A stretch of 64,000 bases of DNA from a virus (taxonomy: Duplodnaviria > Heunggongvirae > Uroviricota > Caudoviricetes), in the IMG/VR virus record IMGVR_UViG_3300029828_000006, positions 27,904 through 91,903 of that record. One strand, 5' to 3'. A program made the translations under genes and the position numbers. The first letter of the stretch is position 1; the number at the start of each line of letters is the position of its first letter. Below the pieces are notes generated by a model, which saw only the letters and a list, made by a program, of their open reading frames with translations, did no database searches and was not told where the DNA came from. Of the stretch, positions 1,418-60,382 are shown in pieces.

Positions 1418-1429
1418 TTTTCTAACACA
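1418..1429. promoter_or_regulatory. operator-like motif TTTTCTAACACA (putative C1-type repressor site) upstream of immI-like leader
   Basis: One of at least 7 copies of the same asymmetric motif found in intergenic regions upstream of operons; flanked by partial inverted copy TTAGAAA at 1400-1406. Confidence 0.4.
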
Positions 1430-1481
1430 GATTATCGAGCGAGCATTTTCCGATCATTGGGATGTTTTGTAGACACACAGG

Positions 1482-2444
1482 TCATCCCCTAAAGCCCGCC
1501 GGGATTGACCAATCCTCACGGTCAAATTCAGACCGATAGCCACGCTGTTTCATCAGGTCAAAGGCTTCACCAATGGTTGCACACCCCAGGGAGCCAGAAT
1601 AATCCATTGAGAAATCCAGGGCACTGGATTGTTTAGGCTTATTCACTGCGGTAGCGGCACTACGTATCCATGCAAATTTTTTTGCCAGCTTTTCAGCGGT
1701 ACGATACAGAGCCTGCCGTTTTGCGTGCCCCTCGTCTGAACGACGCTTTGCAGCTCTCGCTTTTGCCGCCGCCAGGCAGTGGTTGGTATGTTCTTCCCTG
1801 ATTACTGGTTTTTTATCCAGCACCCCATTATCCGCTTGAGAACTATCTGCTGGTGAAGCCTTTGGCTGAACCGCGCATGATCTTTCTCTTCTTTTTGCTA
1901 TAGAGTGACTCTTATTTTCTATTGGCTGTTCATTTTGAACATGGGGGGACTTGTTCAATTTGAACAGGGGGTTCCCAGTTTCAAAAAAATAACGAACCTT
2001 TGAAATCAACTGCTTAACCAGTTTTGTGGCGTTGGCAAATTTGATGCCCTGCTTACCCCCTATCTCCATTGCTACATGAATGAAGTGGAGAAATTGTGTC
2101 GTAAACCGATATACGTTACACACCTGGGCATTGTTATTCGCTACCTGATGTTGCTTAACAAGCATTCCGCACTTCGTCGCTTCAGCAAATGCCCGGCGCA
2201 CAGTAGAAATACTGCGTCCTGTAATCTCGGACATATCAGCATATGAGCGACGGATCATGTATTCATCGGTAGACCCTGCCAGGTTGGCGAACTCGGCAAT
2301 AATGGCGCTATGTGAAGGGGAAAGAAGACCGCTATGACGAGCAAAAAAACTCAACTGATGACCTTTGATTTTTTTGTGGTATTCAGTGTTGTTTTTATAC
2401 TCAGAAGTGTTGAAAGTTACTGAAACTGAATTTAAAATACTCAC
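1482..2444 (-). CDS. HTH DNA-binding protein, possible replication initiator (RepL-like position)
   Basis: 320 aa, predicted helix-turn-helix region (ITGRSISTVRRAF), basic C-terminal half; own operator-like motif upstream at 2616-2629; family not resolved. Confidence 0.3.
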   Translation of the reverse strand: MSILNSVSVTFNTSEYKNNTEYHKKIKGHQLSFFARHSGLLSPSHSAIIAEFANLAGSTDEYMIRRSYADMSEITGRSISTVRRAFAEATKCGMLVKQHQVANNNAQVCNVYRFTTQFLHFIHVAMEIGGKQGIKFANATKLVKQLISKVRYFFETGNPLFKLNKSPHVQNEQPIENKSHSIAKRRERSCAVQPKASPADSSQADNGVLDKKPVIREEHTNHCLAAAKARAAKRRSDEGHAKRQALYRTAEKLAKKFAWIRSAATAVNKPKQSSALDFSMDYSGSLGCATIGEAFDLMKQRGYRSEFDREDWSIPAGFRG

Positions 2445-2506
2445 CAGATAGTTCCGTGAAAAAATCTATCTACCGTATAAATCTATGGCAGTGGATTTAT
2501 ACACCC

Positions 2507-2539
2507 AAAAAGCCGCTTCTCAGCGGCTTTTGCTTTTTT
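2507..2539. terminator. bidirectional rho-independent terminator hairpin
   Basis: aaaaagccgcttctcagcggcttttgctttttt: GC stem flanked by A-run and T-run. Confidence 0.55.
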
Positions 2540-2615
2540 GGCAGTCGCTACCGGAGCAGTGACCGCGATCCTACTCGATCCCATCCACCAGGATCAACAG
2601 TGTATATAAATACAC

Positions 2616-2629
2616 TATGTTAGAAATTT
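2616..2629. promoter_or_regulatory. operator-like motif (reverse orientation AAATTTCTAACATA) upstream of 1482..2444
   Basis: Motif family TTTCTAACA; sits between terminator and start of the 320-aa gene. Confidence 0.35.
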
Positions 2630-2644
2630 AACTTAACAAGGCAA

Positions 2645-11241: not shown

Positions 11242-12873
11242 CTCGGTACCAGCGGTGAAAAGATCCCCCTGTTGAGTACGGCTAACACATGGAGTGCGCG
11301 CCAGACTTTCAACGGCGGGATCACCGGGGCGCTGACAGGGAACGCCGACACCGCGACGAAATTAAAAACAGCCATAAACATTAATGGCGTCAGATTCGAT
11401 GGTTCGGCTGACATTAATATCAATACTCTGGTATCGCGTGGTCGCGTAACGGCTCTGGGGGCGAATGCACAGGGGACATCCGGGATTCAGCTGTATGAGG
11501 CATACAACAATGGCTACCCTTCCCCCTATGGCAATGTGCTTCACCTTAAAGGTGCCACCGCTGCTGGCGAAGGTGAGTTATTCATTGGCTGGAGTGGCAC
11601 GAGTGGTGACCATGCGCCCGTACATATCCGTTCGCGGCGGGATACTGATTCTGCTAACTGGTCTGAATGGGCGCAGGTCTATACGTCAAAAGATTCCGTT
11701 CCCGGCGTTAATGCCAAAGGGAATCAGGACACCTCTGGTAATGCGGCTACAGCGACCAAGTTGCAGACAGCATGTACTATCAACGGTGTCTCGTTTGATG
11801 GTTCTAAAAATATTGAGCTAACGGCGGAAGATTTAAATCTACAGGAAACGGTAAACAAGGCTGATAACGCGGTTCAAAAGACAGGCGATACCTTGTCCGG
11901 TGGACTTACTTTTGAAAACGACTCAATCCTTGCCTGGATTCGGAATACTGACTGGGCGAAGATTGGTTTTAAAAATGATGCCGACAGCGATACTGATTCA
12001 TACATGTGGTTTGAAACAGGCGACAACGGCAATGAATATTTCAAATGGAGAAGTCGCCAGAGCACCACAACAAAAGACCTGATGAATCTTAAATGGGATG
12101 CTTTGTCTGTCCTTGTTAAAGCCCTTTTCAGCAGTGAAGTAAAAATATCGACAGTCAATGCACTAAGGATATTTAATTCATCTTTTGGTGCTATTTTTCG
12201 TCGTTCTGAAGAATGCCTGCATATCATCCCTACACGAGAGAATGAGGGGGAAAATGGTGATATAGGGCCACTACGTCCCTTTACACTTAATCTCAGAACT
12301 GGCCGTATAACTATGGGGCATGGTCTGGATGTTACAGGAGATATAACAACTAACGCCTGGGTGTATGCAAACAGGTTTGCTATTAACAGCAGTAATGGTA
12401 TGTGGATTCAGATGCGCGATAACAACGCTATCTTTGGGAAAAATATAGTTAACACTGATAGCGCCCAGGCATTGCTACGTCAGGACCATGCTGATCGCAA
12501 ATTTATGATTGGTGGTCTGGGGAATAAGCAATTTGGCATCTACATGATTAATAATTCAAGGACAGCCAATGGTACCGATGGTCAGGCGTACATGGATAAT
12601 AACGGGAACTGGCTTTGCGGCTCGCAAGTTATTCCCGGCAACTATGGCAATTTTGACTCCAGATATGTGAAAGATGTTCGACTTGGTTCACAGCAATATT
12701 ATGGAGTGAACAACTGGCAAACATGGAATTTCCAGTGCCCTTCAGGTCATGTATTGTCTGGTATTAATGTTCAGGATACAGGTTCCAACTCTGCCGATAA
12801 TATAGCGGGCGTTTATTACAGGCCCGTTCAAAAGTTTATAAATGGCACCTGGTATAATGTAGCGAGCGTTTAA
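11230..12873 (+). CDS. promoterless alternative tail-fibre C-terminal cassette (Sv')
   Basis: Reading frame open from the crossover site; N-terminal ~60 aa identical to residues ~485-545 of the expressed fibre; would fuse to constant part after inversion. Confidence 0.75.
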
Positions 12874-12874
12874 C

Positions 12875-13402
12875 ATGATGCACTTAAAGAACATAAAAGC
12901 GGGTAACGCTAAAACACTGGAACAGTATGAGTTAACAAAGAAACACGGAGTTATCTGGCTTTACTCTGAGGACGGAAAAAACTGGTATGAGGAAGTGAAA
13001 AACTTTCAGCCAGACACAATAAAGATTGTTTACGATGCAAATAATATTATTGTCGCCATCACTAAAGATGCCTCCACGCTTAACCCTGAAGGTTTTAGCG
13101 TCGTTGAGGTTCCTGATATTACAGCTAATCGTCGTGCTGATGATTCCGGTAAGTGGATGTTTAGGGACGGAGCTGTGGTTAAACGGATTTATACGGCAGA
13201 CGAGCAACAACAACAGGCCGAATCACAAAAGGCCGCGTTACTTTCCGAAGCAGAAAACGTTATTCAGCCACTGGAACGCGCTGTCAGGCTGAATATGGCG
13301 ACGGATGAGGAACGCGCACGACTGGAGTCATGGGAACGCTATAGTGTTCTGGTCAGCCGTGTGGATACGGCAAATCCTGAATGGCCACAAAAACCAGAGT
13401 AA
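12875..13402 (+). CDS. tail-fibre assembly protein, alternative copy (U')
   Basis: 175 aa, [11 protein letters not shown]...[14 protein letters not shown], paralog of 13431..13964. Confidence 0.8.
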
Positions 13403-13407
13403 AAATT

Positions 13408-13427
13408 AAGGCCCGATATCGGGCCTT
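13408..13427. terminator. bidirectional terminator hairpin at centre of invertible segment
   Basis: aaggcccgatatcgggcctt between convergent tfa genes. Confidence 0.55.
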
Positions 13428-13430
13428 CTC

Positions 13431-13964
13431 TCATTCTGGTTGTTCGGGAAACGTTACTGGCAGGCTGGAGGTGTCTGTAGATTCGACTTTCTGCGCAAAG
13501 AGCATCCACTCTGTTAATTTTTGTTTATTCTCGTCGGAAATGATGCCCAGCCGTAGCTGTGAGTCCCATAGCTGGGTTTTATCCCTGACGAGCTGTAGCA
13601 GGCTTTGCTTTTCATTTTCCGCCTGCTGCCTCTGCTCTTCCTCGGTATAAGTTCGCTTTACCACTACGCCATCTTTGAACATCCATTTACCCGAAATGTC
13701 AGCACGGCGATTTGCTGTAATATCAGGAACCTCAACGACGCTTGCGCCTTCTGGATTAATTGCTGAAACATCCTTTTCAATACAAATAATAACGCCGTTG
13801 TGGTCATAGACCATTTTCAACGTATCAGTCTGGAAATTCTTTTGTTCCTCATACCAGTTTTTTCCATCCTCTGTATAAAGCCATTTGATGTTAAATTGTT
13901 TCGTTAGCTGGTATTGCTCTTTTGTTTTAGGGTTGCCAGCAGTAATATTTTTTAAGTGCATCAT
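13431..13964 (-). CDS. tail-fibre assembly protein (U), currently expressed orientation
   Basis: 177 aa, MMHLKNITAGN... family; immediately downstream of fibre gene. Confidence 0.8.
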   Translation of the reverse strand: MMHLKNITAGNPKTKEQYQLTKQFNIKWLYTEDGKNWYEEQKNFQTDTLKMVYDHNGVIICIEKDVSAINPEGASVVEVPDITANRRADISGKWMFKDGVVVKRTYTEEEQRQQAENEKQSLLQLVRDKTQLWDSQLRLGIISDENKQKLTEWMLFAQKVESTDTSSLPVTFPEQPE

Positions 13965-13966
13965 AA

Positions 13967-16900
13967 TTAAATACTCCCCGCGTTATACCACGTTCCATTA
14001 ATGCAATACTGAATTGGCCTTGCCTGAGTTGTATCAATTAATTCATCACGGTTTCCGTTAACTGAACCAGTAACGACATAACCTGACCTGTCAGACCAGC
14101 CGGGACCATTCCATGTCTGAACAGATGACAGACCGCCAAGGCGAATACCTGTAATAAACCTTGAGTTACATTCTGCCTGCGTATATGCACCAACATCTCT
14201 CGCAGAGGGTTTGCGGGTTGTGGTGTAAAACTCTGACCAGTCAGCTTCAAAGCCATAACCATCACGCGCTGAACGATAAAAGATTCCGCCATTTCTGTAA
14301 TTCACGCGGAACTGTACAGCAGGGCAGCTCCCCGTATTCATATTGAAGTGGAGGATTAATGTCGATGCGCCACCAATATTTGCGTTATAGACCCCGCTAT
14401 TCCAGTTCCAGCCAACAGCTTTATCATTTCCGACAGTGCTTCCTGTTTGCCCTAAAGCAAATGCAGGCTGCTGGTTTTTCGTGTTGTAGTCTCGTCGCCA
14501 GCCAGGAGCATAAGCATCACCATGATTAATATAGGTGAATTGAGCGTTAGTAATTCCGCCGCCGCTGGACGTACTCGGCGTAGTAACGCGTATGGTCATT
14601 GCGCCGCGAGTGCCAATAACTTCCACCACAGCACCTGCAAGACAAATATTTCCGCAACCTGTATCTGTAATGACCTTATTATTTGCATAAGCCCATGAGC
14701 CTTTGCACATCCAGTAAGGATGGTTAAATGCTCCCTGACTCTCCAGCCACGAAATAAATTGCGCGGTTGTCCAGACCTGACTATCGCCACCAATATTCAG
14801 CCATGAGCTATATGCGCGGCAGGCACCAATATTTTTGGTGAAGGTATCTTTTCCTGGAATATCTGCGCCGTTCTGGTTTTTCTGCAATGATCCAGCGGCT
14901 AATTCTACGGTTTGCTCAAGATTTAAATCTTCCGCCGTTAACTCAATATTTTTAGAACCATCAAACGAGACACCGTTAATAGTACATGCTGTCTGCAATT
15001 TAGTCGCTGTAGCCGCATTACCAGAGGTATCCTGATCCCCTTTAGCATTGACGCCGGGAACGGAATCTTTTGACGTATAGATCTGCGCCCATTCGGACCA
15101 TGCCGCAGCAGTGCTATCTCTTTTGGATCGAATGAAAGCAGGTGCATGAGCGCCATTTGTGCCACTCCAGCCAATGAGCAACTCGCCTTCACCAGTGGAT
15201 GCTGCTCCCTTCAGGTGAAGTACATTCCCGTAAGTCGTTGGATAACCATTGTTGTATGCCTCATACATCTGCAATCCAGTAGCAGCACCTTGCGTTGTAC
15301 CGGTAAGCGCAGTAACGCGTCCTCTAGACGTAATTGTTGGTATCGAAATGTTCGTAGAACCATCGAACCTGACGCCATTAATGTTTATGGCTGTTTTTAA
15401 TTTCGTAGCGGTGTCGGCGTTCCCTGTCAGCGCCCCGGTGATCCCGCCGTTGAAAGTCTGGCGCGCACTCCATGTGTTAGCCGTACTCAACAGGGGGATC
15501 TTTTCACCGCTGGTACCGAGTTCTCTTAAACCAAGGTATTGGATAACGGCTAGTGTGCTTGTTTTAGCCAGAATATCGCGACCGACTGACGTTAAATCAG
15601 TCTGCGCTACCGTATCCTTACCGGTGAAATAAGGCAGTTTGTTTGCACCAGTCGCAAGGGCAGCAAGAGCGGTTAAAGTTGCATCAAGTGGCTGTTTCCC
15701 TGCCAGCGCATTTGTCATGGTTGTCGCAAAGTTCGGGTCATTGCCCAATGCTGCTGCAAGCTCATTCAGGGTATCAAGAGCTTCAGGTGATGAGCCGACC
15801 AATGCAGAGATAGCAGCCCGTACGTAAGCAGTCGTAGCGATCTGCGTATTGTTTGTGCCCTGTGCGGCGGTCGGCGCAGTAGGGACACCCGTTAATGCAG
15901 GGCTTGCCAAAGGCGCTTTGAGAGCCAGGGCATTGTTGATAGTTGTGCTGAAATTCGGGTCGTTATTGATCGCAGCCGCTATTTCTTTCAACGTATCCAA
16001 TGTGCTAGGCGCACCGTTGATAAGTGTCGTTATAGCTGCCTTAACAAAGGCTGTATTTGCAATCTGCGTGCTATTTGTGCCTTGTGAGGCCGTAGGCGCT
16101 GTCGGTGTACCTGTAAACGCCGGGCTTGCCAAAGGAGCTTTAAGAGCCAGTGCGTTATTGATAGTTTCGCTGAACTTTGGGTCGTTATTGATGGCTGCTG
16201 CAATTTCTTTCAGCGTGTCCATCGTTCCCGGAGCACCATTGATAAGCGCATTTATAGCAGCATAGACAAAGGCCGCATTTGCGATCTGTGTGTTGTTTGT
16301 ACCGGGTTCAGGTGTTGGCGAAGTCGGCGTACCTGACAGATGCGGACTATCGAGCGGAGCTTTTGTATCAACCAAATCATGGAGAGTTTTGACAGCCAGA
16401 GGTGTAGCCGCTTTTCTTTCTTCTGTACTGCTTATTTCATTAGAGAATTCGACACCAACAGCACGGTTAACCCGGTATTTAAGCACAATCATTTCTTTAG
16501 TCACAGCCGTTGCGCCGCTAGGCACGATAACTCGACATAATTCAATTTGATTCTGCCCAATAGTATTGTCCGTACGCGCGTAAATTCTTGCAGCACTGAC
16601 AGAAGATGCGCTATCTACCTGTGTCGTTTTTACACCATGTTCAAAATTGGCTTCCAGCACAATAATGTTTGTAGCCCCAGCCTTTACCGAGACAGTCACA
16701 TCTTCTATTTGCTGAACGGATATCTGAACATTATTTACATCTACTGAAGCAGCCCCTTTACCTTCTGAGTTTTCAGAAGTTACACGGACGCTCAACCCTG
16801 TGCCGGGAACTGGTTCAAATCCACAGTAAAAGCCAGGCAAAACAATATTTTTAAGTTTTCTGTTAAGAGCCGAACTACTATAGAGTTCGAAATATTGAAC

Positions 16901-16975
16901 ATCAGCAAGCAACGGCTGTGAAACACCAGAGGATAGTGTCATTATGTTGTTCGTTTTATCAGCCCCCATAATCAA
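13967..16975 (-). CDS. tail fibre protein (S-like): constant N-terminal part plus currently linked variable C-terminal part
   Basis: 1002 aa; three tandem ~74-aa fibre repeats; crossover falls at residue ~482. Confidence 0.85.
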   Translation of the reverse strand: MIMGADKTNNIMTLSSGVSQPLLADVQYFELYSSSALNRKLKNIVLPGFYCGFEPVPGTGLSVRVTSENSEGKGAASVDVNNVQISVQQIEDVTVSVKAGATNIIVLEANFEHGVKTTQVDSASSVSAARIYARTDNTIGQNQIELCRVIVPSGATAVTKEMIVLKYRVNRAVGVEFSNEISSTEERKAATPLAVKTLHDLVDTKAPLDSPHLSGTPTSPTPEPGTNNTQIANAAFVYAAINALINGAPGTMDTLKEIAAAINNDPKFSETINNALALKAPLASPAFTGTPTAPTASQGTNSTQIANTAFVKAAITTLINGAPSTLDTLKEIAAAINNDPNFSTTINNALALKAPLASPALTGVPTAPTAAQGTNNTQIATTAYVRAAISALVGSSPEALDTLNELAAALGNDPNFATTMTNALAGKQPLDATLTALAALATGANKLPYFTGKDTVAQTDLTSVGRDILAKTSTLAVIQYLGLRELGTSGEKIPLLSTANTWSARQTFNGGITGALTGNADTATKLKTAININGVRFDGSTNISIPTITSRGRVTALTGTTQGAATGLQMYEAYNNGYPTTYGNVLHLKGAASTGEGELLIGWSGTNGAHAPAFIRSKRDSTAAAWSEWAQIYTSKDSVPGVNAKGDQDTSGNAATATKLQTACTINGVSFDGSKNIELTAEDLNLEQTVELAAGSLQKNQNGADIPGKDTFTKNIGACRAYSSWLNIGGDSQVWTTAQFISWLESQGAFNHPYWMCKGSWAYANNKVITDTGCGNICLAGAVVEVIGTRGAMTIRVTTPSTSSGGGITNAQFTYINHGDAYAPGWRRDYNTKNQQPAFALGQTGSTVGNDKAVGWNWNSGVYNANIGGASTLILHFNMNTGSCPAVQFRVNYRNGGIFYRSARDGYGFEADWSEFYTTTRKPSARDVGAYTQAECNSRFITGIRLGGLSSVQTWNGPGWSDRSGYVVTGSVNGNRDELIDTTQARPIQYCINGTWYNAGSI
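15521..15546. promoter_or_regulatory. right crossover site (cix/gix-like)
   Basis: ttctcttaaacc AA ggtattggataa; closely matches Hin hixL TTCTTGAAAACC AA GGTTTTTGATAA (recalled from memory). Confidence 0.75.
15688..16363. repeat. ~222-bp tandem direct repeats (3 copies) inside tail-fibre gene
   Basis: Encode repeated IANAAFV..INGAP..LDTLKEIAAAINNDP..ALKAPLASPA units (residues ~205-430). Confidence 0.7.
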
Positions 16976-17418
16976 CCCTCAACTTGCTCGATTGTCATGA
17001 GAATACTGTAACGTTTACCTTTATAGAGGGTATCTTGCTGGGTGCAAAGCACACCAAAAGCCTGTTCCTCAGCATCAACAAGCACAAGCGTGTTAAAGTC
17101 GTAAGGCGTGTTATCCGGCATTCTTTCTTGAGGGAAGGCTGCATTGATAGTGATAATCCCATCCACACTGGACAATATCAGATCGGACACTGCAAACTGT
17201 TGAGCATCACTCAATTTAAAATCGAGTGGAATGTCAGCTATATTCCAGCCTCCTGCACCATTAGCAGTTACCAGACTAGATTTGCACCAATACGCCTTAG
17301 AGATAACAAAACGCGCACCTTTGCCGATCGCCGACTCAGCGCGGCGTGAATAATAGTAGGAAAGCAATTGCGCCTTATACAGGCGGTTACCATCTCTTGC
17401 CTTTAAATTTTCAGCCAT
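16972..17418 (-). CDS. tail protein (P1 R-position)
   Basis: 148 aa, overlaps fibre start by 4 bp. Confidence 0.35.
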   Translation of the reverse strand: MAENLKARDGNRLYKAQLLSYYYSRRAESAIGKGARFVISKAYWCKSSLVTANGAGGWNIADIPLDFKLSDAQQFAVSDLILSSVDGIITINAAFPQERMPDNTPYDFNTLVLVDAEEQAFGVLCTQQDTLYKGKRYSILMTIEQVEG

Positions 17419-37917: not shown

Positions 37918-38077
37918 GGCTGATTTCGTGTTAAATAGGATGCAATATAAGGTGTATTTGGTCTGATTGATGTTATACTTTGCCAAACATTCATGACTCC
38001 ATTATAGAGCCTGTCCCGCATCAAAAAGGCTCTTATCTGGAACCGTTTTGATACCAAAATCACACCGAGGAACGGAT

Positions 38078-38719: not shown

Positions 38720-38999
38720 GCCTCGTAAATCGGTAAAAGCCCCCGAAGTAAAAGACCCCGATCTTGAACGCCGAATTGAGGATTTTGCCAGTAAGGCTGA
38801 TTTGGTGCCAGGTGAGCAACCAGAAGACAACAAAGTGCTCGATAAGGACGCTCCACGTGATTTTAAATCTATTCGTGTTGGTTTCAATGAATACGAGTAC
38901 CAGGTACTTGATGCGTTAAGTAAAAAGCATAATCGCAGCAAATTGAATATGATCCGCCATGCTATCCTCATGTTAGCGGAGTCTGAGGAAGCAAAATAA
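38712..38999 (+). CDS. ParG-like small partition protein
   Basis: 95 aa, GTG start overlapping parA stop; C-terminal RHH-like segment. Confidence 0.5.
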   Translation: MIKPRKSVKAPEVKDPDLERRIEDFASKADLVPGEQPEDNKVLDKDAPRDFKSIRVGFNEYEYQVLDALSKKHNRSKLNMIRHAILMLAESEEAK

Positions 39000-39039
39000 A
39001 GTCTTTCAGGTTGGTTTTAGAACTTAAAAAGTCTTGAAC

Positions 39040-39110
39040 CAAAGGTGCACCAATACACCACTAATTTGGTGCACCTTTACATCCTTTTTGGTTCCAATTG
39101 TGTACCATTT
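39040..39110. repeat. palindromic centromere-like repeat downstream of parG (GGTGCACCAA / TTGGTGCACC)
   Basis: Inverted repeat 39044-39076 plus ggttccaattg at 39090. Confidence 0.45.
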
Positions 39111-39267
39111 GTCATTAATTTACTTATGCGCAAAAGTGGGCTTCATGAAAAAGCTCATTATTGAAATAACGATAGAAAGCAATTTCTAATCAACTAGTGG
39201 TTGTCAGCCTATTCGGCTTATAAGATCATACGCTGTTATACGTAGTTTACGCTTTGAGGAATCCACA

Positions 39268-40929: not shown

Positions 40930-40953
40930 TAGGTATTTCGCCACATAAAAAAG

Positions 40954-40979
40954 AAAACGCCGCTACTGCGGCGTTTTTT
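40954..40979. terminator. bidirectional terminator between glnS and Dam-methylase gene
   Basis: aaaacgccgctactgcggcgtttttt. Confidence 0.65.
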
Positions 40980-41883
40980 ACTTCATTATTGCAATTATAT
41001 CGTTAGCAACTACACGTTTTGACGCCTTGCAGGACACCGACCGTCTGGCTGCCATATGATGTACTTTAAACCCGTTTCCTTCATATAGTTCACGGATGTT
41101 TGGCGCACCACTATTTGTTATCACTACCTTAGCGCCGCGCTGGTGGGCTTCCACCAATAGAGATACCAGCCGTTTCTGTTCGTCGAAACGGAAGCTATTT
41201 CCTGAATAACTGGTAAACCCTTCTGTATCCGGCAGCGGTTCATACGGCGGATCGCAAAAAATCACATCGCCTTCACCAGCCGCCTCGATGACGCCAGCAA
41301 AGTCACCTGATACAAAGGACGTGTTTTTGAGGACGTCATCAGCCAAAAATGCCTCCATCTCTGCATGTGGGAAGTAGGGCGCTTTGTATTTGCCATACCC
41401 CACGTTGAACTCGCCATTTTGGTTGTACCGCGTTACGCCATTAAAACAGTGCCGATTAAGGTACAAAAAGGCGGCAGCATGATGTAGCTGGTCATACTTT
41501 CCTCTGTTAAATGCCTCACGCACTTCGAGGTAAGCGTCAGCGTTGTTGTAATTTTGGAAAAAACTATATGACAGCGTGACGAGCGAATGTCCTTCTCGCT
41601 GCAATGTCTGATAGAAGTTAATCAGGTCACCGTTAATATCATTAAGCAGGTTGTGGCAAAATCCTGCATTCGTAAATACGGAACCGCCACCAACGAATGG
41701 TTCTATTAACCGCTTACCGTGTGGTAGATGCTCAAGCACTGTAGGCAATTCTGAGAATTTACCACCTACCCATTTGAATATCGGACGCTCATATTCATCC
41801 GGAGTCCGAATGGTGCGCATATAGCTAATTTCAGCCATCGTATCCTGTTTTTCTATGGCTATGCTTGCTATAGATTTACTCAT
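40978..41883 (-). CDS. Dam-family DNA adenine (N6) methyltransferase
   Basis: FKWVGGK...EPFVGGGSVF and DPPY motifs; ATG 41883 overlaps stop of upstream gene (ATGAGTAA). Confidence 0.85.
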   Translation of the reverse strand: MSKSIASIAIEKQDTMAEISYMRTIRTPDEYERPIFKWVGGKFSELPTVLEHLPHGKRLIEPFVGGGSVFTNAGFCHNLLNDINGDLINFYQTLQREGHSLVTLSYSFFQNYNNADAYLEVREAFNRGKYDQLHHAAAFLYLNRHCFNGVTRYNQNGEFNVGYGKYKAPYFPHAEMEAFLADDVLKNTSFVSGDFAGVIEAAGEGDVIFCDPPYEPLPDTEGFTSYSGNSFRFDEQKRLVSLLVEAHQRGAKVVITNSGAPNIRELYEGNGFKVHHMAARRSVSCKASKRVVANDIIAIMK

Positions 41884-42526
41884 AGAGCACCCCCTTATTC
41901 GCTTCGAAAACTGCCTTTGCGAATCCATGTGGAGTAGCACTTCGAAAATTAGCCCTGTCAGGCCCTGGTGGCGCGGCATGGATTCTGTTATCTGGCTTGC
42001 CTAATGATTCGTCCATTAGGGCATCAGGCATGACAAAGCCCTGGCCGCTCCAGAGGCATGTTTTTTTGGTGTAGTTATCTTCCTGACAATATGCAGTGAA
42101 GAAGTAAGGGTGAAAGATGTGATCTGGCTTACGCCAGAATGTCGATATTTTGCTGACCGGATTTTCAATCATGTACGGACAACCGATCATCTTTGCAATG
42201 TCATAACACTGCCAGACAACCTGCATTGCTTTGAACTGGAAAAACGGATCTTTGTCAGCCTTATGCGCAAACCAGCGCGCACCGGAAACAGCAAGGTCCG
42301 TGCACGGCGGAAAACCAGCTAAAAACACAATACGTTGTAAATTATTTCGGAGAAAAGCATAAACTTCATCACTATCGATAATCGCACTGATACGTGTCAG
42401 AACTGCGCCTGATTGCATCAGCTCATCTCTGGTCTCTGCGTGTTGTGGATCGACGATAACAGCATCTATACCATGCTCCAGCCAGGGGGCGACCATTTTC
42501 CCCGTGAAATCACAAAGACTCACCAT
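41876..42526 (-). CDS. divergent C5-cytosine methyltransferase-like protein
   Basis: GFPPC..AVSGAR (PCQ-type motif IV) and ENP (ENV-type motif VI); likely start MVSLCDF at 42526, 14 nt after rdgC stop. Confidence 0.5.
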   Translation of the reverse strand: MVSLCDFTGKMVAPWLEHGIDAVIVDPQHAETRDELMQSGAVLTRISAIIDSDEVYAFLRNNLQRIVFLAGFPPCTDLAVSGARWFAHKADKDPFFQFKAMQVVWQCYDIAKMIGCPYMIENPVSKISTFWRKPDHIFHPYFFTAYCQEDNYTKKTCLWSGQGFVMPDALMDESLGKPDNRIHAAPPGPDRANFRSATPHGFAKAVFEANKGVLYE

Positions 42527-42539
42527 CAGAGGTCTATTG

Positions 42540-43445
42540 TTAACGTTCTGCTTCACCACCAACGGCCTCCACCAGCGAAGTGAACATCGCGGATAATTCA
42601 GCAGTAAACAGGATAAAGTCAGCGTCAAATCGTTGCGCAACATCCTCTCGATCAATATCGTCGTTCTGGTCGTACAATTCGTCGCTGAACGACAAAGCCT
42701 TGATACTCATATCGTCATTCAGTCTGAAAAATGCACGGTCTTGCCAGTTAACCGCAACTGTGGTTGCAACCTTACCAGCTTCTATATGACTCATGATCTC
42801 GTCGGATAGCAGGTCCACTTTTTTGCAGCGGACCGCGCCGCCATCATCAAGCAATGCTTTTAAGGTCGCTTCCTCACCGGCACGGAAACCGTTCGGGAAG
42901 CCATTTTTAATCCAGCCAGTGATGGTCAGTTCTAATGGGTCTTTCGGAGAGAAGGGGACAACGGGCAAGCTGCCAAGCGATTTCCGTAACAAAGCCAGCT
43001 GATCCTCTGCTTTTTTAGCACTGCTGGCCTCGACAAAAACCAGATGATTGCTTCGGTCTATCAGGATTTTAGCGACTGATTTTCTCGTGAAAGCACGAGG
43101 AAGCAGAGAGTGAAGCACTTCATCCTTCAGCGAATCTTTTTCAGTCTTCTTCAGCTTTCTGTCTTGCTCTTCTTCAAGTGTCAGGATTTTTTTCTGTAAC
43201 TCTTCTTTGAGCACTTGAGAGGGTAGGATTTTTTCCTCTCGTTTATGCTGTATCAGAAGAAAACCCTGGTATTCATGGGTGAGGTTGTCACCAAGAACGG
43301 AGGTCCAACCAGCTTTAGCCATATCCTGAGAACCGCATGGGGTAAACACAAACTTGCTAAGGGCTGCATTTACTTCTGCAGTATCCCAGCTAACTTCGCG
43401 TGAAAGACGATAGATGAAGATATTTTTGAAAGCGACTGATCTCAT
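42540..43445 (-). CDS. rdgC: RdgC-like recombination-associated protein
   Basis: 301 aa; [12 protein letters not shown]...[11 protein letters not shown]...[21 protein letters not shown]...RFDADFIL resembles E. coli RdgC (from memory). Confidence 0.75.
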
Positions 43446-43454
43446 GTCTCACCA

Positions 43455-43492
43455 TTTGTGTTAGAAAATACATATTAATTATCTAACACAAA
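43455..43492. promoter_or_regulatory. pair of inverted operator-like motifs upstream of rdgC
   Basis: TTTGTGTTAGAAAA (43455-43468) and TTATCTAACACAAA (43479-43492); first copy lies 10 nt from rdgC ATG. Confidence 0.5.
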
Positions 43493-43504
43493 TGGGTGCA
43501 TTTT

Positions 43505-44158
43505 CTATCCTTTCTTGAAATCGAAGTTGCCAGCAGTGGCCTGAAAGGTTCCTCCTGCCTTGAAAGCTATGTCTCCGTTAGCGGTGACAGCTATATTTTC
43601 CCCATTAACATTGATGTTGTTGGCTGATTTGACGTTAACACTCCCTCCTGCATTCACGATTACATCAGCCGGACCAATGATATATATCTGCCCGGACTCA
43701 TTCATGCCAATCCTTGAGCCTGCTGCCGTATTGGCAATTTCATAGCCGCCACCAGCAGTTCGTACTTCAAGAATATTGTTGCGGTGAATAACGAAGTCTT
43801 TCGTTGCTGAGATTTGGGGGCGGGGAGGTGCTCCATCTACTTCCGGCGGCGTCCAGCCGTTGCCTTTGCCAGATGCTTCTGGTGCAACGTTTGGAATTCC
43901 TCCCGGTGCATCCTGAGCGGCACCAACTATCATTGGGCGTCTGGTGTCTATTCGACCGTTAACATCTAAATAAGGAAACTCTACCCAGACCAGGTCACCT
44001 TTGACTGTAGGTACAAAAGCGTTCCCGATGGGTAACTGGTATTCCGCCCAGGGTAGATCGTCATCAGGAACGCCATTCCAGTCAGGTAAAACACGGACTT
44101 GAGCACGCATAAGCCCTGCCGGGTGCACAGTTCCAACAATTTGCGCTCTACGCTTCAT
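43505..44158 (-). CDS. baseplate spike protein (gpV/VgrG-like OB fold plus beta-helix)
   Basis: 217 aa; RAQVRVLPDWNGV...VPTVKGDLVWVEF...RPMIVGA then repetitive VNxGGxVNV beta-helical tail. Confidence 0.55.
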   Translation of the reverse strand: MKRRAQIVGTVHPAGLMRAQVRVLPDWNGVPDDDLPWAEYQLPIGNAFVPTVKGDLVWVEFPYLDVNGRIDTRRPMIVGAAQDAPGGIPNVAPEASGKGNGWTPPEVDGAPPRPQISATKDFVIHRNNILEVRTAGGGYEIANTAAGSRIGMNESGQIYIIGPADVIVNAGGSVNVKSANNINVNGENIAVTANGDIAFKAGGTFQATAGNFDFKKG

Positions 44159-45135
44159 TTGTTAGGCACTCCCAATATCATTCGTGTTGTGTAGCCTACG
44201 CGGTCCTCAAAGTGCGCAACATTTTTTACTATCAGCTTACGGGGCATTGATTCATCAATGCGGTTTTCCTGGTCATAGCGGTATACGATAATCTCTATTA
44301 CCATCCCCGGTTTTATATCAGGATTGCCTGCGACTTCTATATCCATTTTGGGGACGAGAGACAGCTGCATATTGCGAAGAGTTTCCATATCAGAGTCGGA
44401 TATATAACGCACTGGGAGTGAGCTATCGCCATATTCGACGTAGCCATCGGTCATGGAATACCCAACAAAACGATATTGATTCTTTGCTGTTGTCGCATGT
44501 TCCTGTTGGAGTAGGCGCATTTTGGACAAAGTGTATTCTGCTTTAGGGTTATTCCCCTCGTAGGTAAATGATGGCGTTTGCTTCATCAGATCAGCCAGGG
44601 TATAAAAGTTAAATTCCCCCCGACATACCCAACACAATGCACCTTTGTCTCGCGCTATCTCCGAAAGCATTTTTGACGGTTTGTCACCGGCATTCAGATG
44701 ATATGTAACTGCGCGTTTTAGCACGCTGCTGGTAATTTTAAGTTTGCCGGAATATGCCTTGAATATAGCGTCTGGTGTTTTGTTGGTATGTAAATTTGTG
44801 CGCGGGGAGGGGATCTTAAACCTGCGCACGTCTTCACTGACAGCAATAACGGTAACAACATCACCAGCCAGCATTGCAGACGTAACAAAGAAATCTGTTT
44901 TAAAAGTGCCTGCATTACCGTTTGGATCGCCCATTTCAGCCACCAGCGATGCACCGTATTTGGCTTTCCAGTCATCAATTACGGTGCCGGTAGCGTCATG
45001 AATTTCCAGTTTTAGCAAAGGGGCTTTGAGGCTGGTTTTTTCTACATATACTGCGGTAAAAATCCAGTCTCGTGGCACTTTGTTATCGTTAATGAGCACT
45101 GACTGTAGAAAATATTGTTGTAACTCCTGGGCCAC
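44155..45135 (-). CDS. hypothetical tail/baseplate protein
   Basis: 326 aa, translationally coupled to spike gene. Confidence 0.3.
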   Translation of the reverse strand: MAQELQQYFLQSVLINDNKVPRDWIFTAVYVEKTSLKAPLLKLEIHDATGTVIDDWKAKYGASLVAEMGDPNGNAGTFKTDFFVTSAMLAGDVVTVIAVSEDVRRFKIPSPRTNLHTNKTPDAIFKAYSGKLKITSSVLKRAVTYHLNAGDKPSKMLSEIARDKGALCWVCRGEFNFYTLADLMKQTPSFTYEGNNPKAEYTLSKMRLLQQEHATTAKNQYRFVGYSMTDGYVEYGDSSLPVRYISDSDMETLRNMQLSLVPKMDIEVAGNPDIKPGMVIEIIVYRYDQENRIDESMPRKLIVKNVAHFEDRVGYTTRMILGVPNK

Positions 45136-53165: not shown

Positions 53166-53462
53166 TTAACTAACAATCCAGTCCGTAGCAACAACATCCT
53201 CTGGAGCTAAATCAATCGCATGGATTTTCCCATCCCGGATAGTGCGCCAGTGCTTTCGTGATCCACCTTCGGGCCACACCCATACACCTTCAGGCCAGGA
53301 TACTCGACGGCATACGATTGCATAGCCTGTTTTAATCCTCTCTCTGGCGGTATGCAACGACAGGTTTGCCTTTGGACTTTCAGGCACAGGATGGTGGATT
53401 GCCTGAAACATCCCCATCTTTGGATGATACCAGCGTTTATTGCGTGGTTCTGCCTCCGACAT
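53166..53462 (-). CDS. antirepressor-locus C-terminal-module protein (separate gene)
   Basis: ATG at 53462 preceded by AGGUG SD 7 nt after Rha stop; MSEAEPRNKRWYHPKMG... homologous to the tail of 137..844 and to the partial ORF at 1..139. Confidence 0.45.
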   Translation of the reverse strand: MSEAEPRNKRWYHPKMGMFQAIHHPVPESPKANLSLHTARERIKTGYAIVCRRVSWPEGVWVWPEGGSRKHWRTIRDGKIHAIDLAPEDVVATDWIVS

Positions 53463-53469
53463 CACCTGC

Positions 53470-54108
53470 TTAAAGGCTTTCCGGAAGGGGGGCCATGGCC
53501 ACAATGGAGCGTCGCGCAAGCAAACCATCGGGAGTTAAAAACTCATGCGTATCGGTGGGAATCCGGAAAGCGTTAACCAGGTTGCGGCATTTGGCTTCAG
53601 TCAGGCCACATTTCGCCGCCAGCTGGCGGTAGCCAATGTAGCCTTCCGGAATATTGCCTTTCTTTATTTGCTCGAGTGTTTCAGCGACCATCGATACTTG
53701 TGCTGATACCTCGGCTACCTGGGCATTTACGGCGTTGATCCGGCGTTCATGCTCAAGATGCATTTGCGCCATTTCAGCCAGAATTTCGGCTTTTGATTTT
53801 AACTGTACCCGGGCATTCTCCAGTTCGCGCCAGCGGTCCACCAGCCGGGCGGTGAATTCGGGAGAGAGCTGCGCGACGACGACAATACTATCGCGCTTGC
53901 CTTGCTCGCCTTCGAAGAAATAGGCTTTTGTGTATTTATTAGGGCTAAGTGATTGATTATTCTCAACTGTAGCCAATGGCGTATGTTGGATAACTCCTTT
54001 AGCAACAAGTCTTTCGATGCTGCGTTTAACATCAGAGTGACGACTTCCCACCAGTTCCGCGATCTCAATGCTGGTCATTGTCGCTTTTTGAGAGATGGAC
54101 AGATTCAT
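53470..54108 (-). CDS. Rha-family phage regulatory protein / antirepressor (second copy)
   Basis: 212 aa, MTSIEIAELVGSR motif; ~90% DNA identity with copy at 137..844 over the conserved core. Confidence 0.7.
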   Translation of the reverse strand: MNLSISQKATMTSIEIAELVGSRHSDVKRSIERLVAKGVIQHTPLATVENNQSLSPNKYTKAYFFEGEQGKRDSIVVVAQLSPEFTARLVDRWRELENARVQLKSKAEILAEMAQMHLEHERRINAVNAQVAEVSAQVSMVAETLEQIKKGNIPEGYIGYRQLAAKCGLTEAKCRNLVNAFRIPTDTHEFLTPDGLLARRSIVAMAPLPESL

Positions 54109-54323: not shown

Positions 54324-54389
54324 ATTGGCAGCCTCCTTTGACTAAGTTAAGGAGCTACCGCGTGAGGTTCCAATCTCAATGGCGGTAGC

Positions 54390-54480
54390 ACTGACTGGGT
54401 TGGAACTACCGGCGTCAAAGGGAACCGGCCTGCCTTTCGGCAGCCCAGCCAGCACTACCATTGATCTCTGAGCTAAACGC
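54390..54480 (-). ncRNA. candidate c4-type antisense RNA element in second icd/ant leader
   Basis: + strand 54414-54422 gtcaaaggg is reverse complement of RBS-region cctttgac at 54335-54342. Confidence 0.25.
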
Positions 54481-55121
54481 TAAGTATGGCTGTGCGATGG
54501 CATGACACAAAAAAAGACGCGTTCGGCGTCTGTGTCGCCTTTGACATTATCCGGGGTTCCAATCCCGGCACCCGTTTTTCTAAGGTGCCGTAGAAATATA
54601 CCCCACGATAATGCCAGGGCGCAACAGTCAGTATTTTATGCTTTGGCGGATTTCTTCCGGGCTTGCTTGCAGGCGTAGGCCATTGCTTTAGCTTTCACTT
54701 CATCCAGCTTCCCGGTGATCACTTCTTTTCCGAGAGTGACAAACCAGTCATAGCAACCGCCAGTAATGTTCTTGATTTGAAAGTTGAGGTAGCGAACAGT
54801 CATTTTGACACCCCCAGCGCGAGTAAAGAATGCAGATTATCGCGTGAGTGGTGGACGACGAGTGATGGGAAAAGACTGTAGTTGTTCATAGTGTAGTGAC
54901 TCCTTGCTTTCGGAGCCGCCATCGACTGTTCCACGGTCTGGTGGCGGCGCAATAAAGGCTGGAACACCGTGAGTCAACGGGGGCTTTTCAGCCACCTATA
55001 TTGCACCGCCATAGGTATGGCGGCGGCAATAATACGAAAAACTAAACAGTTTGTCTCAAAAAGTTGACCGGTGTGCCAATCGGTAGTGAATGTACATCGG
55101 TGAAATTCACAATTCAACTTA

Positions 55122-55136
55122 AAATGTTAGAAAACT
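55122..55136. promoter_or_regulatory. operator-like motif (reverse orientation, AGTTTTCTAACAT) far upstream of second immI-like module
   Basis: Motif family; abuts stop of ref-like gene. Confidence 0.35.
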
Positions 55137-55713
55137 AATTTATCAATTCAATCGCCATCTGATACAACGTCATTTCATCGGCATTGTGCCGCATGAAATC
55201 TGCTTTTCCGCCTATTTTTCCGTCAGCATGAACAGGGACCAGCCAGGGATATTGTTCTCGGACCTCGGCTGGCGCTGCGTACTGGTGGTGCCATTTACAC
55301 AAAGGGAGGACATATTTATGCGCGTTCTCTACCGTTCTCCCGAAGATATGGTGCAGGGATACCACAGGGCTATGTTGCCCGTGAATATGGCAGGCAATGC
55401 AGGGGAGAGTACCGATAGCGGTCTGTATCCGGCGTTCATCGGCTGTGAGTGATCTGCCCTTCAGGCCGCGTGACGTGCGTGTTTTTTTGGGCGGAGCGGA
55501 TACCGCTTTATCTTTTCTCCGCTGTTCATATTGCTTTGCTTTTTCAATTTTCTTTTGCCGATATTCAGGCGATGCGGCTTTTTCTCTCGCTCGCTGCTGC
55601 TGGCGTTGAGCTTGTTGAAGGCGCTTTGCCCTTTGTTCCTCTCGCCAGGCTGGGTCAGCCAATTTTTGCATGGCTTTTTGTCTCTGTTTCTCCCAATAGC
55701 TCTGTTTCTGCAT
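55135..55713 (-). CDS. ref: HNH endonuclease, P1 Ref-like
   Basis: 192 aa; Lys/Arg/Gln-rich N-terminal ~80 aa then LPCIACHIHG...SLHHI.GRT...LPLCKWHHQ...AAPAEVREQYPWLVPVHADG HNH core. Confidence 0.6.
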   Translation of the reverse strand: MQKQSYWEKQRQKAMQKLADPAWREEQRAKRLQQAQRQQQRAREKAASPEYRQKKIEKAKQYEQRRKDKAVSAPPKKTRTSRGLKGRSLTADERRIQTAIGTLPCIACHIHGQHSPVVSLHHIFGRTVENAHKYVLPLCKWHHQYAAPAEVREQYPWLVPVHADGKIGGKADFMRHNADEMTLYQMAIELIN

Positions 55714-55781
55714 GATGGCAGTCTCTTACTTTTCAACGATTTTTCTATGATTGATCATAACCGTTAGATATTCAAAATTGA

Positions 55782-55796
55782 TTTTCTAACACAAAA
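55782..55796. promoter_or_regulatory. operator-like motif TTTTCTAACACAAAA in divergent ref / early-operon promoter region
   Basis: Motif family; partial inverted copy GTTAGATA at 55763-55770. Confidence 0.45.
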
Positions 55797-57804: not shown

Positions 57805-58590
57805 ATGAAATTCTCCAAATTTTCTGAGTTGGTGAATCGTATTTTGTCCAACAACCACAGCCATCGTCGCGATATGGATGTAACGATCATTGTTCATTCG
57901 CCTGGCAGCATTGGTTCAACACCCTCAGTTGAGGTTCAGTCAATTCACGCTGGTTTTGATTGGGATTCCGGGAAAGTGCTGATTTTCCCTGCACAGCCAC
58001 TGACTACGCTAACACCAGAACAGATTACTGATATTACTGATAGTGTGCGCAAAGGTCAGTCCTGGCACGCATATCAGGAATACAAGAAGCATAAAGAGCA
58101 GTTGGAAAAATTATCGATTGAACTTGATACCGCAAAACAGCGCATTGCAGAGCTGGAGGGTAATCGCGCGGCGCTGGCTGCGGAGAATGCGAGACTGAAG
58201 GCGATATGTGAGGATCGCCGCACGTTCATTATGAATGGCGTGCAGCTTGGTTTTATCAAGGTGCCAACAGTGGAAATAGATCCAGCTCTTGAAACAATTC
58301 GTATCGCCCTATCACCACAAAAAACCACTCCTGCGACCGACACTTTCCTGGATGAAGTGAAGACTGAAGCACGCAAGGAGGGCGCTTACTTTGTGGCGAA
58401 CAGGATGCTGGCTGCCTGGAAAGCTGGTTTTATTGATGATACTGCGAAGAACGCCGCGGATATTGCCCGGATGATTCTTACCTCTACTGAGTTTATGGCT
58501 AATGCGCGGGAAGGCGATTTTGACCGCTCATTCTCTGATGGCGTTCTCGAAGATATCGCCGAACAGCTTAGAAAAGGAGGTAAACAGTGA
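57805..58590 (+). CDS. coiled-coil early protein (Ea22-like), paralog of 56901..57389
   Basis: 261 aa; AAENARLK and C-terminal module shared with 56901..57389. Confidence 0.35.
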   Translation: MKFSKFSELVNRILSNNHSHRRDMDVTIIVHSPGSIGSTPSVEVQSIHAGFDWDSGKVLIFPAQPLTTLTPEQITDITDSVRKGQSWHAYQEYKKHKEQLEKLSIELDTAKQRIAELEGNRAALAAENARLKAICEDRRTFIMNGVQLGFIKVPTVEIDPALETIRIALSPQKTTPATDTFLDEVKTEARKEGAYFVANRMLAAWKAGFIDDTAKNAADIARMILTSTEFMANAREGDFDRSFSDGVLEDIAEQLRKGGKQ

Positions 58591-58835
58591 GTAATACCGC
58601 ACGACTACAGCTTGGTTTTTCACCGCTATCAAAAACCATCGTGTTGGCAAAAATGCGTGACTTAGGGGATGGAACAAAACGTCGTGTCGGCAATGATCGC
58701 GGTCGTGATGTAACCAACGAGGCCGCACAACTCGTTTGGCATCTAGTCATGGCTGAAGGCGGTGAAATTAATTGGGAGCTGGATGATGGTTCTCGCATGG
58801 TATTGAAGGCAGAAAAGCAGGAGCCACCACAGTGA
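58587..58835 (+). CDS. small hypothetical early protein
   Basis: 82 aa, ATGA-coupled. Confidence 0.3.
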   Translation: MSNTARLQLGFSPLSKTIVLAKMRDLGDGTKRRVGNDRGRDVTNEAAQLVWHLVMAEGGEINWELDDGSRMVLKAEKQEPPQ

Positions 58836-59107
58836 ATATCGACACCACGATAACAATCGATACGGCCCTAAATACCGGTCTGGCACTTTTCGGTTGGCTT
58901 TACATCATGTCCCGTACCTGGCGATGGCTGGGTTCCATTTTCCTAAAAGAGTGGAAAAAACGGCGCAAACAGGAACTACGCCAGAAGGCATTAGAAGCGT
59001 TCTATGACGCATTTGAGCTTAGCCGCATTGAACCAGGCACAACAGCCAGAATAGCGACAAAAGGCGACCTGATGATAGTGATGTTCAGACAGGAGAAAAC
59101 CAAATGA
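58832..59107 (+). CDS. small hypothetical early protein
   Basis: 91 aa. Confidence 0.3.
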   Translation: MNIDTTITIDTALNTGLALFGWLYIMSRTWRWLGSIFLKEWKKRRKQELRQKALEAFYDAFELSRIEPGTTARIATKGDLMIVMFRQEKTK

Positions 59108-59328
59108 CAGAACAGACGATGACAAATCGCGAACTTGTTGATGCCGCGATTGAACTTGCTGGCGATTTTTATTCCATGATGGGTTACGAGCATCGACCTG
59201 GTTTTAAGTATTGGGAGTCACCGCATCCGCAAGAACAACAGGTGTTTGAAATGGCCTGCCGTGCTTTTGAGGTTATTCGCGGTTCTGATGTGATGGAGGC
59301 CGTTGCCGACTTGGAGGATGAAGAGTGA
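59104..59328 (+). CDS. small hypothetical early protein
   Basis: 74 aa. Confidence 0.3.
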   Translation: MTEQTMTNRELVDAAIELAGDFYSMMGYEHRPGFKYWESPHPQEQQVFEMACRAFEVIRGSDVMEAVADLEDEE

Positions 59329-59636
59329 GCATCATTAAAGAAATGCCGGTAGAACGTGATGAATATGGCTGCTGGACACATCCGGAGTATGAGAAGTTTT
59401 GCGCAGGTCGTGAATATATTTCCACTGAGGAATTTGACGCCTGGATGAAGGAAAATAATCTTCAGTGGACTATTCGCAGTATGGATGAAGATGATTTTGA
59501 TCTGGACGCAGCTGGACCCGATATTGCCGCCTGGGAACCGGAGCGACCAGAGGGTGAAGGCTGGTTTGTTGGCTCTATCCATGACACTGAAGATGGTCCA
59601 GTTTGTATCTGGCTGCGGGAGAAGGTTGCCGCATGA
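59325..59636 (+). CDS. small hypothetical early protein
   Basis: 103 aa. Confidence 0.3.
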
Positions 59637-60325
59637 TCCAGGCTATGCATGAAGTGAATTTATATAGCCGTATTGATGGTTCTGGCTACAGAAACATATG
59701 GGTTGTTGGTGATCTGCATGGTTGCTACACCAGACTGATGTCCGAACTCCATCGTGTGGATTTTGACCCGGCGCAGGATTTACTGATATCGGTTGGCGAC
59801 CTTATCGATCGCGGCACCGAAAATGTTGAATGCCTGGAGCTATTGCAGATGCCCTGGTTTCGGTCGGTTATGGGAAACCACGAGCGATTAATGATCGATG
59901 CGTTAAGTCCTGATGGCAACGTGAATAACTGGCTAATGAATGGCGGGCAATGGTTCTTCATGCTGGACGCTGATCAGGAAATATTAGCCAGGGCGCTGGT
60001 GGAGCTGGTAAGACGTCTGCCCTATATCATTGAGTTGAACACCGGGCATGAAACTATCGTTATAGCCCATGCCGACTATCCAGGTGGAGAGTACCAGTTC
60101 GGTAAGGATGTGTCGCTTTTTGATGTTGTCTGGTCGCGCAGTCGCGTCGGTGATTCGATAGATGGCATTGGTGGAGAAATCACAGGCGCAGATCGCTTTA
60201 TCTTTGGGCACACACCGGTACGAAGACCAAAAGCATACTGGAATCAGCACTACATAGACACTGGCGCGGTTTTTTGCGGAAATCTGACGCTAATGCATGT
60301 GAAGGGAGGGCAGCTTAAAGTCTGA
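59633..60325 (+). CDS. Ser/Thr protein phosphatase (lambda PPase family)
   Basis: GDLHG, GDLIDRG, GNHE motifs; ATG 59633 overlaps previous stop (ATGA); track ORF starts 59603. Confidence 0.8.
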
Positions 60326-60351
60326 TCAAATCATTTACGCACTCAAAATAC

Positions 60352-60382
60352 GTTAGAACATTGATTTTAGTTTTCTAACATA
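60352..60382. promoter_or_regulatory. operator-like inverted pair (GTTAGAA ... TTTTCTAACATA) upstream of 60423
   Basis: Motif family. Confidence 0.4.

Follow-up and report, generated by a model that had tools for sequence, protein, structure and literature searches.

The window analysed here is a stretch of 64,000 nucleotides (positions 27,904 to 91,903 of the IMG/VR virus record IMGVR_UViG_3300029828_000006), and it carries an asymmetric 19-bp motif dispersed over seven loci. Our results indicate that these sites are very probably operators of a C1-type master repressor encoded by the same element, binding being predicted by analogy with phage P1. This reading is based on the motif itself, on its dispersal between genes, on its conservation and positional homology with the operators of P1, and on the way it covaries with the lineage of the repressor. 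Judged by database matches, the window covers about 70% of an E. coli plasmid prophage that resembles phage D6 and is distantly related to P1. Specifically, window positions 33000-45000 are 96.9% identical over the full length to Escherichia phage D6 (MF356679) and ~100% identical to the E. coli plasmid pF16EC0589-1 (CP088384.1, 91.9 kb) in megablast searches, and 140 PLSDB plasmids in all match this part. The GenBank record of D6 is annotated gene by gene as a distant P1 relative, and the window corresponds approximately to D6 positions 20.7-84.7 kb. Joining the window to the rest of the replicon gave a circle of 91,942 nt, 91% coding and 9% non-coding, to which D6 genes were transferred by BLAST.

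An earlier sequence-only reading of this DNA had proposed at least seven motif loci, and the seven listed were all found in place. The 14-mer TTTTCTAACACAAA with at most two mismatches occurs 6 times in the window as compared to 0.83 expected, and none of 100 dinucleotide-preserving shuffles reached 6. The exact core, TTCTAACA, is present in 7 copies in the window and 13 in the whole replicon. An unbiased count of all 8-mers places TTCTAACA and TTTCTAAC among the top intergenic words of the replicon, while in coding DNA the counts of TTCTAACA and TTTCTAAC range from 2 to 3. The sequence-only reading had named the density inside coding regions as one of the points on which its proposal could fail; the core is concentrated in non-coding DNA, with 11 copies there versus 2 in coding regions. 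Alignment of the 13 exact-core sites gives an informative block of 19 bp, A-W-W-T-T-A-R-T-T-T-T-C-T-A-A-C-A-Y-A. Flanking positions that had not been used for selecting the sites are conserved as well, namely A-9, T-6, T-5, A-4, T-2, T-1, Y+8 and A+9. The asymmetric motif of ~14 bp proposed earlier is thus real, but its boundaries have to be moved: the block reaches 7 nt further in the 5' direction (AWWTTAR), and the 3' CAAA is not conserved past YA.

A 19-bp matrix added copies that the exact core had missed: the one at 43472-43490, the lpa site and, at 60349-60367, a weak partner. Altogether the window has eight strong copies and two degenerate partners (10 half-sites) at the seven loci, all intergenic, and the replicon has 17 motif copies. 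The only contact with a gene among the window sites is at 55123-55141, which overlaps the last 7 nt of ref. One additional two-mismatch match at 51345 (TTTTATAACATAAA) breaks an invariant core base and scores 8 bits, which is the chance level; it is probably not a site. Weak matches at 51338, 47897, 19345, 52073 and 53982 (8-11.5 bits) are at the level of shuffled sequence and were left uncounted. The strong copy is oriented with transcription at six of the seven loci, as had been proposed; the site at 1411-1429 is antiparallel. In contrast, the proposed distance of 10-30 nt from the first start codon applies at two of the seven loci only (13 and 11 nt), the others being 40, 40, 171, 200 and 342 nt away.

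The repressor gene is absent from the window, in agreement with the sequence-only reading. A gene for a C1 homologue is found on the same circle, ~8 kb to the right of the window, at 72072-73109 in joined coordinates, which corresponds to 25230-26267 of CP088384.1. Its product of 345 aa is 21% identical to P1 C1 over 268 aa (E 1e-8). Both the D6-type C1 and P1 C1 match PHROG 1678 (phrog_1678), with E values of 5e-170 and 3e-140; for the C1 homologue we found no Pfam family match and no solved structure. A 27-bit site is located 11 nt upstream of the c1 homologue. The other sites outside the window are 76 nt before lpa (the late-promoter activator gene), between cre and the orf117-dut operon, and around pmgS/pmgR/pmgM. 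The par, rep and toxin-antitoxin genes and glnS have no site.

Covariation was examined in three plasmids and in 79 IMG/VR loci, each centred on a C1 homologue and at most 21 kb long. Where C1 is 69-100% identical to the D6 type, the loci have 2.2-3.6 hits of the D6-type matrix per 10 kb; this matrix has no hit in P1 and none in the P1-like loci, which total 810 kb. Conversely, hits of the P1-type matrix number 4.05 per 10 kb in P1-like loci, ~0 in D6-like loci and 0 on the whole replicon studied here. A third motif, (A/T)TAATTCTAAGG, goes together with a C1 of ~30% identity and is found in Leclercia pE1_003 (NZ_CP042508) and in an independent IMG/VR locus (L173). The pE1_003-type elements are P1/D6-like plasmid prophages that have a C1 homologue and a dispersed intergenic motif at homologous places, and they form a third specificity class. 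The top intergenic word of pE1_003, ATTCTAAG, has 9 non-coding versus 0 coding copies, and the TAATTCTAAGG motif is placed before c1, cre, ref, rdgC and pmgM and after pmgS. The three classes of motif thereby follow the three classes of C1. The conjugative plasmid pK91 contains only a D6-like prophage fragment with c1 and cre; its C1 is 68% identical, and the sites before c1 and beside cre are kept amid diverged flanks. A profile scan of genome contigs with a C1 alignment yielded only 4 P1-like loci and added nothing. In one IMG/VR contig (3300048927_000308) with 49% Ref identity, a P1-type operator, ATTGCTCTAATAGTT, is found upstream of ref and the D6-type one is replaced, which means that the operator class switches at a homologous position.

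The repressor system of P1 offers the closest comparison. P1 C1 binds as a monomer. In the GenBank record of P1, C1 operators annotated on an experimental basis (among them Oc4, OrepL, Odmt, Oref, Olpa, Oc1a-e and OpmgRa/b) precede c4, kilA-repL, uhr-hrdC-dmt, ref, mat, ssb, ban, pmgL, pmgN-ppp, pmgR-pmgS, pmgT, lpa and c1/coi, and Obanab and Oc1ab are bivalent, i.e. consist of overlapping inverted copies. Most D6-type sites precede homologous genes: c4/icd/ant (twice), repL, hrdC-dmt, ref, lpa, c1 and pmgS/pmgR/pmgM. In both systems the repressors are homologous (same PHROG), asymmetric sites are spread over a plasmid prophage of ~90 kb (22 in P1 versus 17 here), and monovalent and bivalent operators coexist. 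P1 operators overlap promoter hexamers, and the sites studied here may do so too. P1 C1 has 22 dispersed operators with the asymmetric 17-bp consensus ATTGCTCTAATAAATTT (PMC8546580), which the sequence-only reading had given correctly. The recognition sequence differs, and ATTGCTCTAATAAATTT is not matched in the replicon studied here. With its own recognition sequence and no P1-type operator, the system therefore appears to work like that of P1 and to lie outside the P1 immunity group. The earlier proposal of dispersed C1-type operators that resemble those of P1 but differ in sequence is supported by the homologous C1, the site positions, the conservation and the covariation.

There are further differences from P1. 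The conserved block is 17 bp in P1 and 19 bp here, extending further 5' of TCTAA; the copies in Obanab and Oc1ab overlap by 6 bp as compared to 4 bp here; and the hrdC and ref sites are monovalent in P1 and bivalent here. P1 has one immI with Ant1/2, whereas the D6-type element has two immI modules with Rha-type antirepressors and a repressor that is 62 aa longer. In D6 itself the same 17 sites are found in the same positions, and c1 is 99.6% identical at the nucleotide level. The repL site of D6 reads TTGCTAACA, while the core of the repL operator in the window is perfect. The GenBank record of D6 annotates rox and cix sites and no operators. A full-text literature search revealed nothing relevant on D6 operators or on the motif; the D6 genome paper lies outside that search and a prior description is possible.

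By analogy with P1 C1, the C1-like repressor would bind each asymmetric 19-bp site, AWWTTARTTTTCTAACAYA, and at three loci it would bind two inverted copies overlapping by 4 bp. As the sites overlap the −35, the spacer or the −10 of predicted sigma-70 promoters, RNA polymerase would have no access to them while the repressor is bound. We infer in this way C1 as the binding protein, its binding as a monomer, promoter occlusion and co-derepression of the operons. The promoters silenced in the window would be those of two immI modules, repL, hrdC-dcm-dmt, ref, the divergent early operon, the pdcB operon and orf52-53. The genes listed as controlled in the sequence-only reading (two immI modules, repL, hrdC/rdgC and the methylases, ref and the early operon) are correct. 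The site before c1 would lead to autoregulation, and the one before lpa would hold the late genes off indirectly.

Several points speak against this interpretation. The 19-bp matrix finds 15 replicon sites above 20 bits, with 19.4 bits as the best score in 100 shuffled replicons, but it was trained on the sites themselves and these statistics are partly circular. Two replicon sites are inside the coding mask: one is in pmgM, and the other overlaps only an unconfirmed open reading frame (ORF) of at least 60 aa that was added in a stretch unannotated in phage D6. A predicted −35, spacer or −10 is overlapped at six of the seven window loci in a simple sigma-70 consensus scan, a kind of scan that works near chance level, and the promoters have modest scores of 8-9 of 12. 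At orf52 the predicted promoters are 26-40 nt upstream, which would place the motif copy of this gene downstream of the transcription start. A homologue of the P1 co-repressor Lxc was not found at the syntenic gene, D6 orf13, which has no similarity to Lxc. Finally, little is shared with the P1 consensus beyond TCTAA, and because both are AT-rich the alignment of the two is uncertain; with ~9 of 17 positions matching in either orientation it is ambiguous. The alignment on the TCTAA core, the most conserved part, is preferred because this core is present also in the third class and because both repL operators then lie on the transcribed strand over the −10. Even so, this alignment is suggestive only. 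The core common to the three classes is only TCTAA, within GCTCTAAT in P1, TTTCTAAC in the D6 type and ATTCTAAG in pE1_003.

It could be argued that the motif is a shared promoter element, either an early-promoter consensus or the target of a phage activator or sigma-like factor. The sites do stand in front of operons; at two loci TAACAT in the core can act as a −10-like hexamer, and at two others TTGATT in the 5' arm can act as a −35-like one. However, relative to the predicted hexamers the motif is found variously at the −35, in the spacer, at the −10 and downstream of the start. It is also antiparallel at the first immI module and forms inverted overlapping pairs at three loci. Moreover, one copy precedes the repressor gene itself, the layout mirrors the mapped P1 repressor operators, and the late operons have a separate late-promoter-like box upstream. 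We consider it very unlikely that the sites are promoter elements of this kind.

An equally improbable explanation is that the sites are bound by a protein other than C1: the Rha-type winged-helix 'antirepressors', some other small regulator, or a nucleoid protein of the host. Rha/HTH_24 proteins are encoded in both immI modules, and C1 was linked to the sites by inference. On the other hand, the motif class follows the C1 lineage in three classes and in many independent contigs, and the pK91 fragment, with no Rha-type gene listed, keeps the sites before c1 and beside cre. A host factor would keep one motif across the P1, D6 and pE1_003 elements of the same enterobacteria. Comparison by eye with the consensus sequences of IHF, DnaA, LexA and CRP gave no match. 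That the motif is a functionless chance or compositional repeat, as the AT-richness of both the intergenic regions and the motif might suggest, is effectively refuted: no dinucleotide-preserving shuffle comes up to the observed counts, the core TCTAAC, which includes G/C positions, does not vary, sites are kept where flanks are replaced, and the motif is absent from the equally AT-rich P1-like loci. Operators of the C1-type repressor are thus the preferred reading, and the individual sites are described below on that basis.

The operator of the first immI module is at 1411-1429 on the + strand (AAATTAATTTTCTAACACA, 30.1 bits), antiparallel to transcription. The module contains c4-a1b1, the C4 RNA, icd and a Rha-type antirepressor gene, all on the − strand. 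The site touches or overlaps the −35 of a promoter predicted on the − strand (TTGCTG at 1412-1407, a 16-nt spacer and TATGAT at 1390-1385). It is the positional homologue of P1 Oc4, which likewise overlaps a −35. The operator of the second module, at 55123-55141 on the − strand (AAATTAGTTTTCTAACATT, 27.4 bits), overlaps the ref stop codon. This module, on the − strand, contains orf86, orf85, an isrK-like element, the C4 RNA, icd2 and a frameshifted ant2. The operator core supplies a predicted −10, TAACAT (55129-55124), with a −35 TTGAAT at 55151-55146, and the operator is invariant in 28 relatives save for the degenerate R position. Rfam models match C4 RNAs at 1116-1201(−) with 68.8 bits and at 54378-54465(−) with 77.1 bits, c4-a1b1 at 1269-1321(−) and the isrK-like element at 54510-54588(−). 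By these annotations the two are complete immI-type antirepressor modules, each with an operator upstream and with icd-like and Rha-type genes downstream of the RNAs.

Regarding the second Rha-type antirepressor gene, at 53166-54108(−), it is homologous to D6 orf82 and is 943 nt long versus 942 nt in D6. It is frameshifted after approximately residue 205, giving ORFs 53470-54108 and 53166-53528, and can be either a pseudogene or a sequencing error. The PLSDB gene table, from which pseudogenes are omitted, has no coding sequence at this gene.

The lytic replication gene repL (1482-2444, − strand) has its operator at 2616-2634 on the − strand (AAGTTAAATTTCTAACATA, 26.3 bits). The core of this operator supplies the predicted −10, TAACAT (2622-2617), with the −35 TTGCCT at 2644-2639. 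The operator is kept in 21 IMG/VR relatives although the 5' flank diverges. Its positional counterpart in P1, OrepL, overlaps the PkilA −10. Directly downstream, at approximately the predicted 5' end of the repL transcript, there is an 18-nt inverted repeat, AGTGTATATAAATACACT (2598-2615). It is followed by several GATC sites and is kept in all relatives examined.

The orf52-orf53 genes (33575-34442, + strand), for which a Pfam search gave no match, have an operator at 33543-33561 on the + strand (ATTTTAGTTTTCTAACACA, 29.5 bits), 13 nt upstream. It is conserved where orf52 is only 80% identical and the flanks diverge. P1 has no counterpart of this operator.

The remaining three loci, hrdC, ref/early and pdcB, carry inverted pairs, and their A/T-rich 5' arms overlap by 4 bp with the same spacing throughout. 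The sequence-only reading had noticed an inverted partner at one locus (43455-43468 with 43479-43492); this partner is real, but the number of bivalent loci is three. The second copies at ref and pdcB are degenerate in the window and full in more divergent relatives. The bivalent hrdC operator consists of 43457-43475 on the − strand and 43472-43490 on the + strand (23.0 and 23.7 bits, sequence TGTGTTAGAAAATACATATTAATTATCTAACACA) and is located 11 nt upstream of hrdC(rdgC)-dcm-dmt on the − strand. A predicted −10, GATAAT (43483-43478), is inside the pair, and the operator lies over the −10 and the start region. Relatives down to an HrdC identity of 76% have invariant cores in the pair, with variation in the central spacer and the outer flanks. 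The operator is the positional homologue of P1 Odmt.

The ref/early operator has a strong copy at 55775-55793 on the + strand (AAATTGATTTTCTAACACA, 27.1 bits) and a degenerate inverted partner at 55760-55778 on the − strand, the whole pair at 55760-55793 being TGTGTTAGAAAATCAATTTTGAATATCTAACGG. It is located between the divergent ref (− strand) and the early operon orf88...ppp (+ strand), and it overlaps a predicted rightward −35, TTGATT (55778-55783), and the spacer, together with candidate leftward ref promoter elements. The block is invariant even though both flanks are replaced in a divergent group of loci (L032-L038); in this group the partner is complete and contains TTTTCTAACA. The corresponding genes of P1 have the operators Oref and Oppp. 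The pdcB operator has a strong copy at 60364-60382 on the + strand (ATTTTAGTTTTCTAACATA, 28.7 bits) and a weak inverted partner at 60349-60367 on the − strand (12.5 bits); the pair at 60349-60382 is TACGTTAGAACATTGATTTTAGTTTTCTAACATA. It lies 40 nt upstream of pdcB (DUF968) and the following genes on the + strand and covers the predicted −35 TTGATT (60361-60366) and the spacer. Among 33 relatives the strong half does not vary, and nearly all of them retain the partner core GTTAGA, with hypervariable sequence directly outside this core.

At 43450-43497 the region of the hrdC operator forms a palindrome whose arms are 14 bp long; the fold of this DNA has an energy of −14.2 kcal/mol (z −7.6). We rejected the idea that the pairs serve primarily as a hairpin or cruciform, since only the hrdC pair folds well and the ref/early and pdcB pairs do not. 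The hrdC arms extend past the conserved motif and read CCATTTG/CAAATGG, CCAATTG/CAATTGG or AAAACTG/CAGTTTT among relatives. Changes in the outer arms are compensatory: 4 pairs change on both sides (10 cells), a level reached in 0 of 500 shuffles, in approximately three lineages only. The dyad symmetry outside the motif hints at a second function of this region, for example in forming a hairpin in late transcripts that read through it.

The second most enriched intergenic word is a different one. On the + strand it is TGTGATTT, at 5385, 6832, 17470, 24846, 33479 and 51256, and it is read on the − strand, where AAATCACA(A/C)ACT is followed by 3 nt and a −10-like hexamer upstream of late operons. 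The operons concerned are prt/pro, ddrB, darA, the R-S tail fibre genes, pmgB-sit, capsid gene 23 and mat. The AAATCACA box looks like the D6-type equivalent of the Lpa-dependent late promoter of P1, whose −22 box, AAGTGACTT, is unlike it in sequence.

Two further features of the window concern its relation to D6. Window positions 11270-17000 are the Cin-invertible tail-fibre segment, which is in the orientation opposite to that in D6. Its S/U alleles are partly unlike those of D6 (86-94% identity), and in this segment the gene coordinates of the nearly identical plasmid CP088384.1 differ from those of the window. As in D6, a full-length glutaminyl-tRNA synthetase gene, glnS, is present at 39268-40929, with no operator upstream.

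D6-like plasmid prophages are frequent in E. coli, Salmonella and Shigella. The probable operators described here are an expected, ordinary feature of this phage family, with a recognition sequence of their own, and the understanding of P1-type immunity is unchanged by them. The operator sequence would define the lysogeny regulon, i.e. which prophage genes are silent and which are not, and would serve as a marker of an immunity group separate from that of P1. The sites may be used as targets in electrophoretic mobility shift assays, chromatin immunoprecipitation and reporter assays, or in the construction of D6-type vectors that can be induced. It is conceivable, although we would not bet on it, that the P1-, D6- and pE1_003-like C1 proteins all read the TCTAA core, that the lineage-specific flanks set immunity, and that the hrdC site has a second function. 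If this is true, heteroimmunity groups among hundreds of clinical Enterobacterales phage-plasmids may be predictable from sequence alone.

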